A stretch of DNA of 64,000 bases, from contig CDROCS010000849.1 of NCBI GenBank assembly GCA_977020255.1, positions 248,001-312,000 on the forward strand, in the 5' to 3' direction. The position numbers and the translations under genes were made by a program. This stretch comes from Obrimoposthia wandeli (lineage: Eukaryota). The first letter of the stretch is position 1; every line of letters begins with the position of its first letter. Of this stretch, positions 53,927 through 54,314 are shown one piece after another. A model generated the notes under the pieces. It saw nothing but the letters and a program-made list of their open reading frames with translations, was not told the DNA's origin and searched no databases.

Positions 53927-54314
53927 ATGAAGTAAGCCTCTTTTATTGTATTAATTAATATATAATTTTAGTTCTGACGAGATATTAACTAGCGGAAGAA
54001 AACTACTCGGTTCGCGTTTCAATGGAGTTTTCAGTCTTGATCGTATACCATCATTGATTCACTCAGGAGGATATGTAATCAATACGCATTCATCAAATCT
54101 GCCTGGAGAACATTGGATTGCAATATATGTCTTGCTAAACAAAATATTTGTATTTGATCACTATGGTTTATATTACCCATCTAAATTAGTCTCTACAGTA
54201 CTTGATTCAAATAAGAAAGTACATTTCAATAAAATACAATACCAAAGCGCTTTAACACAATCTTGCGGACAAATCTGTTTACTGTGGCTGGCAAGCATAA
54301 ACAATTTCAAATAA
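53927..54314 (+). CDS. Adenain-like cysteine protease, spliced (exon 53927-53931, intron 53932-53971, exon 53972-54314; 115 aa)
   Basis: The spliced product begins MNSDEILTSGRKLLGSRFNGVFSLDRIP and contains VINT, GEHWIAIY, FDHYG, QYQ and SCGQIC (His/Asp/Gln/Cys). The intron runs GTAAGC...TTTTAG. Confidence 0.85.

Follow-up and report, generated by a model that had tools for sequence, protein, structure and literature searches.

A predicted microintron directly behind the start codon of the protease gene in a Maverick/Polinton element of Obrimoposthia wandeli

Introduction

The protease gene of a virus-like element in the genome of Obrimoposthia wandeli raises a simple question: where does its translation start? 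The gene lies within a 64,000-nucleotide stretch of genomic DNA, referred to here as the window, and the open frame that encodes the protease (53955-54314) contains no Met in 119 amino acids. The original prediction placed the start codon upstream, in a 5-nt micro-exon that splicing would join to the protease frame, and proposed that expression of this maturation protease is gated by splicing as a possible late-gene control point. We examined the sequence around the split, the start positions of homologous proteases, diverged relatives of the element and introns of host genes, and weighed the resulting picture against other ways in which the protease could obtain a start codon.

Genomic context of the protease gene

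The protease gene is part of an element that spans about 47.6-59.8 kb of the window and carries the genes by which Maverick/Polinton elements are recognized: a protein-primed PolB, an rve integrase, an A32/FtsK-like ATPase and an adenovirus-like protease. Along the forward strand, an A32-like packaging ATPase (49141-49788; PF04665, E 1.4e-6, over the cut-off) is followed by an rve integrase with a C-terminal chromo-like part (50277-51305; PF00665, E 8.7e-12), a major capsid protein-like gene (52676-53897) whose frame is broken near 53250 and whose stop codon is separated from the protease ATG by 29 nt, the protease gene itself, and a long replication gene ending in protein-primed PolB (pPolB; 54970-58950; PF03175 in two pieces, E 4.5e-10 and 9.9e-15, over the cut-off). 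The replication gene is in several pieces in the window copy, and single frames of 815-872 aa in two other copies (L168 and L169) cover these pieces. The two capsid pieces of the window have no Pfam match; an unbroken capsid copy (L168) is assigned with a score of 0.98 by features to DJR-like clusters carrying PF21738 on 15-65% of their members, at a recognition value under 2300, and this assignment is taken as a lead only. A weak match to Endonuclease_7 (HNH-type; E 0.0017, below the cut-off) is present within the pPolB frame at 56776-56898. Stop and start codons overlap by 1 or 4 bases at 49788, 51302 and 52327, where translational coupling or plain compaction is possible.

The left terminal-repeat region of the element (47651-48959) consists of 185- and 209-nt tandem units. 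It is mirrored at the right end in four of six sister copies, and the mirror is absent at the right end of the window copy. The left part of the window copy is 98-99% identical to its sisters, whereas the right part is 73-82% identical to them but 95% identical to another subfamily (L175). The right half thus comes from another subfamily, and the window copy is a mosaic whose ends are unmatched. Broken in both its capsid and its polymerase gene, this mosaic copy may itself never be expressed. The family as a whole is abundant: of 27,119 candidates, 150 matches were scored, and every one of these is 93-100% identical. Tandem arrays with units of 185, 209, about 190, 32 and 34 nt occur at 47651-48947, 59156-59750, 59984-60211 and 62628-63289, the first two of them in the terminal repeat. 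In several copies (L163, L165, L168, L175-L176 and L180) a second Maverick is found in or beside the first, often inverted.

A gene for a serotonin (5-HT7-like) receptor is encoded on the reverse strand at 40390-41433, 7.6 kb upstream of the ATPase. Its best named matches are in planarians and other flatworms (51-61% identity), and the host of the element is therefore probably a flatworm.

Predicted split start of the protease gene

Direct reading of the forward strand finds an ATG at 53927-53929 followed by two bases, AA (53930-53931), a donor GTAAGC (53932-53937), an acceptor TTTTAG (53966-53971) and the next base of the protease frame at 53972. Excision of the 40-nt interval 53932-53971 brings this ATG into frame with the protease and gives a protein of 115 aa by arithmetic. 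Without excision, the same ATG reads Met-Lys-stop. The predicted intron is 82% A+T and interrupts codon 2 in phase 2, so that 53927-53931 is the coding end of exon 1 (the ATG and two bases of codon 2) and 53972-54314 is exon 2. The layout, the 40-nt interval, the Met-free downstream frame and the length of the spliced product were thus all borne out as originally described. The term 5-nt micro-exon holds for the number of coding nucleotides and need not hold for the size of the exon, since these five bases are only the coding part of exon 1.

Both splice sites fit U2-type GT-AG ends with a GTRAG-like donor. A branch-point-like motif is found in five of the six introns compared between lineages (see below), at a varying distance, and is uninformative because the DNA is so A+T-rich. 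Another ATG further upstream (53905) reads Met-Ile-stop and is changed in one printed variant of the window's family (L016). None of the 15 listed joints (of 288) in four runs of one sample was a GT-AG joint; the runs look like DNA, and the result speaks neither for nor against splicing.

In order to estimate how often such a layout occurs by chance, we counted AG dinucleotides preceded at 30-55 nt by ATG-NN-GT(A/G)A on both strands of the window, and found 33 among 6093 (0.5%); with any GT in place of GT(A/G)A the count rises to 151 of 6093. As AG itself occupies 4.8% of positions, the odds of meeting the layout at a pre-set site are approximately 3 in 10,000.

The protein encoded downstream is readily placed. 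The match to Pfam Peptidase_C5 (PF00770) has an E value of 0.0048 and, at 17 bits versus a curated cut-off of 21.3, falls below that cut-off. A profile built from 90 homologs matches the adenovirus protease 1avp_A with an E value of 6.7e-13, and the predicted structure (pLDDT 95) matches 1nln_A in Foldseek (E 1.9e-7, TMq 0.81). His47 of the exon-2 frame (54111) is invariant, Asp62 (54156), Gln91 (54243) and Cys98 (54264) are each kept in at least 90% of the 90 rows, and the His, acidic, Gln and Cys residues occur in the order and fold of adenain. By these profile and fold searches, the predicted protein is a member of the adenain family (peptidase C5, clan CE) of cysteine proteases.

Start positions of homologous proteases

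A start downstream of the split codon in homologous proteases would speak against the predicted joint. This was checked, and the homolog starts came out in favor of the intron. Once aligned, four of the first eight homologs begin with a Met at precisely the position that the spliced model assigns to it. We then used an invariant Gly as an anchor for 148 homologs (157 proteins minus four over 260 aa and five without the anchor Gly). A Met is found 15-23 residues before this Gly in 103 of the 148, and the splice model predicts 19. The N-terminus of the adenovirus protease falls in about the same register, with profile position 3 aligned to adenain residue 5 of 1avp_A.

The sequence MN(T/S)xxI had been given as the established beginning of such proteases. 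It is indeed the commonest form among homologs but is no rule: for 104 Met positions located 16-22 residues ahead of the anchor Gly, the second residue is N in 49 cases and D in 21, and the third is T in 46 and S in 25.

Three metagenome loci provide a direct comparison at the DNA level. In L038 and L040, whose proteases are 55-56% identical to that of the window, and in the more distant L047 (27%), an ATG is located exactly two codons before the junction and the intron is missing; removal of the intron from the window sequence restores colinearity with all three.

Recurrence of the predicted intron across lineages

We searched the genome with diverged proteases, which yielded families 2-4 in addition to the window's own family 1, and collected related loci from metagenomes. 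At one shared codon, all four families and three of the metagenome loci have ATGAA, then GT(A/G)A, A+T-rich sequence and an AG with T directly behind it. The layout is present in 29 of 30 fetched loci of family 1 (intron of 40, 41 or 42 nt), 29 of 29 of family 2 (42 or 43 nt), the single locus of family 3 (42 nt) and 27 of 30 of family 4 (38 or 37 nt), tallies that are biased because the queries fetching the loci held junction-region residues; the three family-4 loci with a changed AG were favored by the query. Among 12 metagenome loci, three carry the intron (L039 with 38 nt, L042 and L044 with 43 nt), six are without it (L038, L040 and L045-L048, the last four being distant), two (L041 and L043) are cut at the contig end and one (L049) is doubtful. 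Scans of viral contigs gave 11 distant loci, 31-41% identical over part of the protein, which were left out as uninformative.

Since copies are near-identical inside each family, the unit of evidence is the lineage, of which there are six. The proteases of the intron-bearing relatives are 52-60% identical to that of the window. The five coding bases before the donor are identical in all intron-bearing lineages checked in DNA, and all six have GT(A/G)A at the donor. The intron lengths at the matching position, 37-43 nt, span all three frames. Intron interiors are no more alike than shuffled sequences in 14 of 15 lineage pairs, the exception being family 1 versus L042, while ATGAA, GT and AG are kept. 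In addition, the N-termini of six proteins (P0002, P0004, P0010, P0011, P0015 and P0021) read like a translated intron that ends at the same Ser codon, which suggests that the corresponding genes carry the intron as well.

A midpoint-rooted tree of this short protein was built from 53 sequences, 11 taken from DNA and 42 from the set P0001-P0049 (P0007, P0017, P0019, P0035, P0036, P0038 and P0048 were left out). All 12 intron-bearing rows, six seen in DNA and six assigned from protein N-termini, fall within one clade of 18 rows (support 97/84), three of which are unlabelled. L038/L040 and P0013 are nested inside this clade without the intron; labels of intron-free P-rows come from the protein, and P0013 could be a spliced transcript. 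With the intron rows in one supported clade, the simplest reading is one gain and two losses, and the tree suggests that the intron was gained once and later lost.

The recurrence of the layout bears on two ways in which the protease might do without the intron. Translation could begin without cis-splicing, either at a near-cognate codon (ATA at 53958 or 53982, or TTG at 54054) or at an AUG supplied by a spliced leader. Such in-frame codons do exist, and the spliced leader of flatworms terminates in AUG and is able to provide the start of translation (PMC9851317). However, this leaves the invariant ATGAA-GT upstream of the gene in six lineages unexplained, and a start at TTG 54054, which is residue 28 of the exon-2 frame, would remove core structure: helix 2-15, strand 16-21 and Gly18, the last being invariant in 90 of 90 rows. 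We consider a start of this kind highly improbable. The spliced-leader AUG was separately tried as a start at the predicted acceptor and rejected, as the leader joined at 53972 reads Met-Phe-stop and is out of frame.

Alternatively, the ATG may simply have been lost by decay of the window copy and the motif may be accidental. The broken capsid and polymerase genes of this copy would be in keeping with decay. Nevertheless, the low background frequency per site and the recurrence of the layout in six lineages argue against it, as does the absence of Met from the first 30 codons of exon 2 in three families (0 of 30, 0 of 29 and 0 of 30 loci with a Met there). An accident of this sort is extremely unlikely. 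We conclude that 53932-53971 is very probably an intron, and the claim that the start codon joins the protease frame via splicing is strongly supported by the comparison with homologs and other lineages.

The relation of the start codon to the capsid gene indicates how the split may have arisen. The offset of the protease ATG from the capsid stop is -4 in family 2, -1 in L042, 0 in L038/L040, +2 in L039 and +29 in the window. In most lineages, both intron-bearing and intron-free, the two codons abut or overlap, so that the start codon appears to have stayed put and the intron to have come in behind it. The same proximity could be read differently, as a sign that polyadenylation competes with splicing on a capsid-protease read-through RNA, with cleavage inside the intron giving a capsid-only mRNA and splicing giving the protease. 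With the usual distance of cleavage downstream of the hexamer, the ATTAAA found at 53919 (22 nt beyond the capsid stop) would direct cleavage to a site within the intron, and the abutting or overlapping codons of the other lineages would suit a read-through RNA. However, the adjacency of stop and start holds in the intron-free L038/L040 too, an ATG that touches the stop leaves no room for a signal, and the printed introns of those lineages are free of A(A/T)TAAA. The hexamer is also common in DNA of 70-80% A+T (four in 700 nt here). Competition between the two processes is, in our estimate, quite improbable.

Predicted introns in the polymerase gene and introns of host genes

The protease is not the only gene of the element with this arrangement. 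Further downstream on the forward strand, sequence comparison points to a second start-codon exon at the beginning of the pPolB gene, with 9 coding nt (54923-54931) and a predicted intron of 38 nt (54932-54969) behind it. In a second subfamily the intron in this position measures 44 nt, and early exon 2 has Ile where the window has Met. A further predicted intron of 45 nt (57455-57499) lies inside pPolB, in phase 1 of a Gly codon; it is over 100 nt in L168/L169, and it is absent with colinear flanks in L164, L170 and L165 (families 2 and 3). Two short GT-AG intervals are also seen at the head of the long gene in family 2 (L164:5780-5990), one of them ending right before an ATG.

Homology-defined introns of similar size are present in host genes. 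Chaperonin and dynein genes contain introns of 42 nt (nine supporting loci) and 48 nt (two), and a weaker one of 39 nt; the length of the protease intron is within this host range. Short introns are a minority, with three distinct ones (39-48 nt) among 84 host intron rows, a number that includes duplicates and some false calls. In the available text on Opisthorchis (PMC6530080), microintrons below 75 nt make up approximately one third of introns, peak at 37 nt, favor the 5' ends of genes and are reported from free-living flatworms as well. Besides the intron-bearing chaperonin genes, over 20 frames without introns, each of about 550 aa and matching the Cpn60/TCP1 family (200-265 bits), are found on many contigs (L119-L132), an expansion that is unexplained.

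Discussion

The explanation that best accounts for these observations is a host-type spliceosomal microintron, probably inserted once, five bases into the protease gene, and likely spliced constitutively; judged from sequence comparison, we regard this reading as probable. The intron would have been inserted behind the ATG, leaving the start codon where it was ancestrally, with no exon added to supply a lost ATG. Host RNA polymerase II and the host spliceosome would make the protease mRNA, and splicing would complete codon 2, yielding a protease of 115 aa that includes the first helix and strand. Because unspliced RNA encodes only Met-Lys-stop, splicing would be required for the protease to be made.

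A requirement for splicing is not the same as regulation by splicing. The original prediction saw here a splice-gated control point of a late gene, in which a real intron is retained and thereby keeps the maturation protease off until the capsid is assembled. Retention would provide a clean off state, and the intron is kept across lineages at 52-60% protease identity; a functional, regulated intron would likewise be expected to persist in deeply separated lineages. The adenovirus L3-23K protease mRNA is made by alternative use of 3' splice sites in the late unit, according to the accessible part of PMC7851563. On the other hand, the splice sites are consensus-like, and no regulatory conservation was found in the intron, its interior being unconserved in all but one of the lineage pairs. 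The replication gene is arranged likewise, with a start exon and a further predicted microintron inside the gene, size and 5' position match the host microintron class, and close relatives (L038/L040, as well as P0013) nested inside the intron clade do without the intron. A layout common to replication and capsid-module genes, of host-class size and dispensable in close relatives, is no pointer to late control, and the proposal of a late-gene switch is thus unsupported; we consider such gating unlikely. A wider version would have the host microintrons behind both the protease and the polymerase start codons act as switches, with retention or in-intron cleavage holding the protease off until capsid assembly; this would amount to late control of the adenovirus type in an integrated virus for which no particles have ever been observed. 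The wider version is equally doubtful, and a constitutively spliced host-type microintron remains our preferred reading.

In adenovirus, pTP and the polymerase obtain their start codon from a short upstream exon, and the coding sequence of the protease is not known to be split. The adenovirus protease mRNA is selected by 3' splice sites within a long late unit, as described in the accessible part of PMC7851563, unlike the start-codon intron predicted here. At the protein level, adenain (PDB 1AVP, 1NLN) shares with the window protease its fold, the order of His, acidic, Gln and Cys residues and an N-terminus in about the same register, but has 204 aa rather than 115 aa.

The element shares with animal Mavericks/Polintons (adintoviruses) its ATPase, integrase, pPolB and protease, with a candidate DJR-like capsid and, in sister copies, putative terminal inverted repeats besides. 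It differs in that its protease and polymerase genes have predicted spliceosomal microintrons kept across diverged families, whereas the core genes of published elements are called intronless. The available text of Barreat and Katzourakis 2021 (PMC8097293) reports intact vertebrate Mavericks without introns, in agreement with Kapitonov and Jurka 2006, and that of Widen et al. (10.1101/2022.07.12.499685) calls the core genes of nematode Mavericks intronless, with introns only in cargo. In the available main text of the adintovirus paper (Starrett et al., PMC8502044), "splic" and "exon" are absent, and the accessible parts of PMC10748475 and PMC11161782 contain nothing on spliced Polinton genes. 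We found no published description of a protease intron; Repbase, GenBank third-party annotations, Kapitonov and Jurka 2006 and supplements may hold spliced models. As far as these partial texts go, the predicted position-conserved start intron in the protease appears to be new for Mavericks, in contrast to the intron-free core genes reported in PMC8097293 and 10.1101/2022.07.12.499685.

Introns with some of these features are known from elsewhere, and the comparisons that follow refer to the accessible parts of the papers cited. The microintrons of Opisthorchis felineus (PMC6530080) are likewise of approximately 37-45 nt, GT-AG, near consensus and at the 5' end of genes; theirs are in host genes, whereas ours are inside a virus-like element. 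The start-codon introns of host genes described by Nielsen and Wernersson 2006 (PMC1626468) also split the ATG from nearly the whole coding sequence, but they are in phase 0 right after the ATG, whereas the protease intron is in phase 2 of codon 2. Dinoflagellate polinton-like elements contain introners (PMC11957031), which are likewise introns within an element but are mobile and mostly gained after integration. Cryptophyte PLVs carry group I introns (PMC12220804), which are self-splicing, whereas the protease intron is position-conserved, diverged in its interior and apparently inherited with the element.

If the intron is real, annotation based on open reading frames cuts the protease gene short or declares it dead; the unusual N-termini of the six proteins named above suggest as much. 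Transcription and splicing of these elements likely take place in the host nucleus. Splice signals have survived 40-48% divergence of the protein, an argument for a continued need for the protease. Finally, the exon junction would be a marker present only in RNA, which separates transcripts from the many DNA copies and makes expression of the capsid module directly testable.
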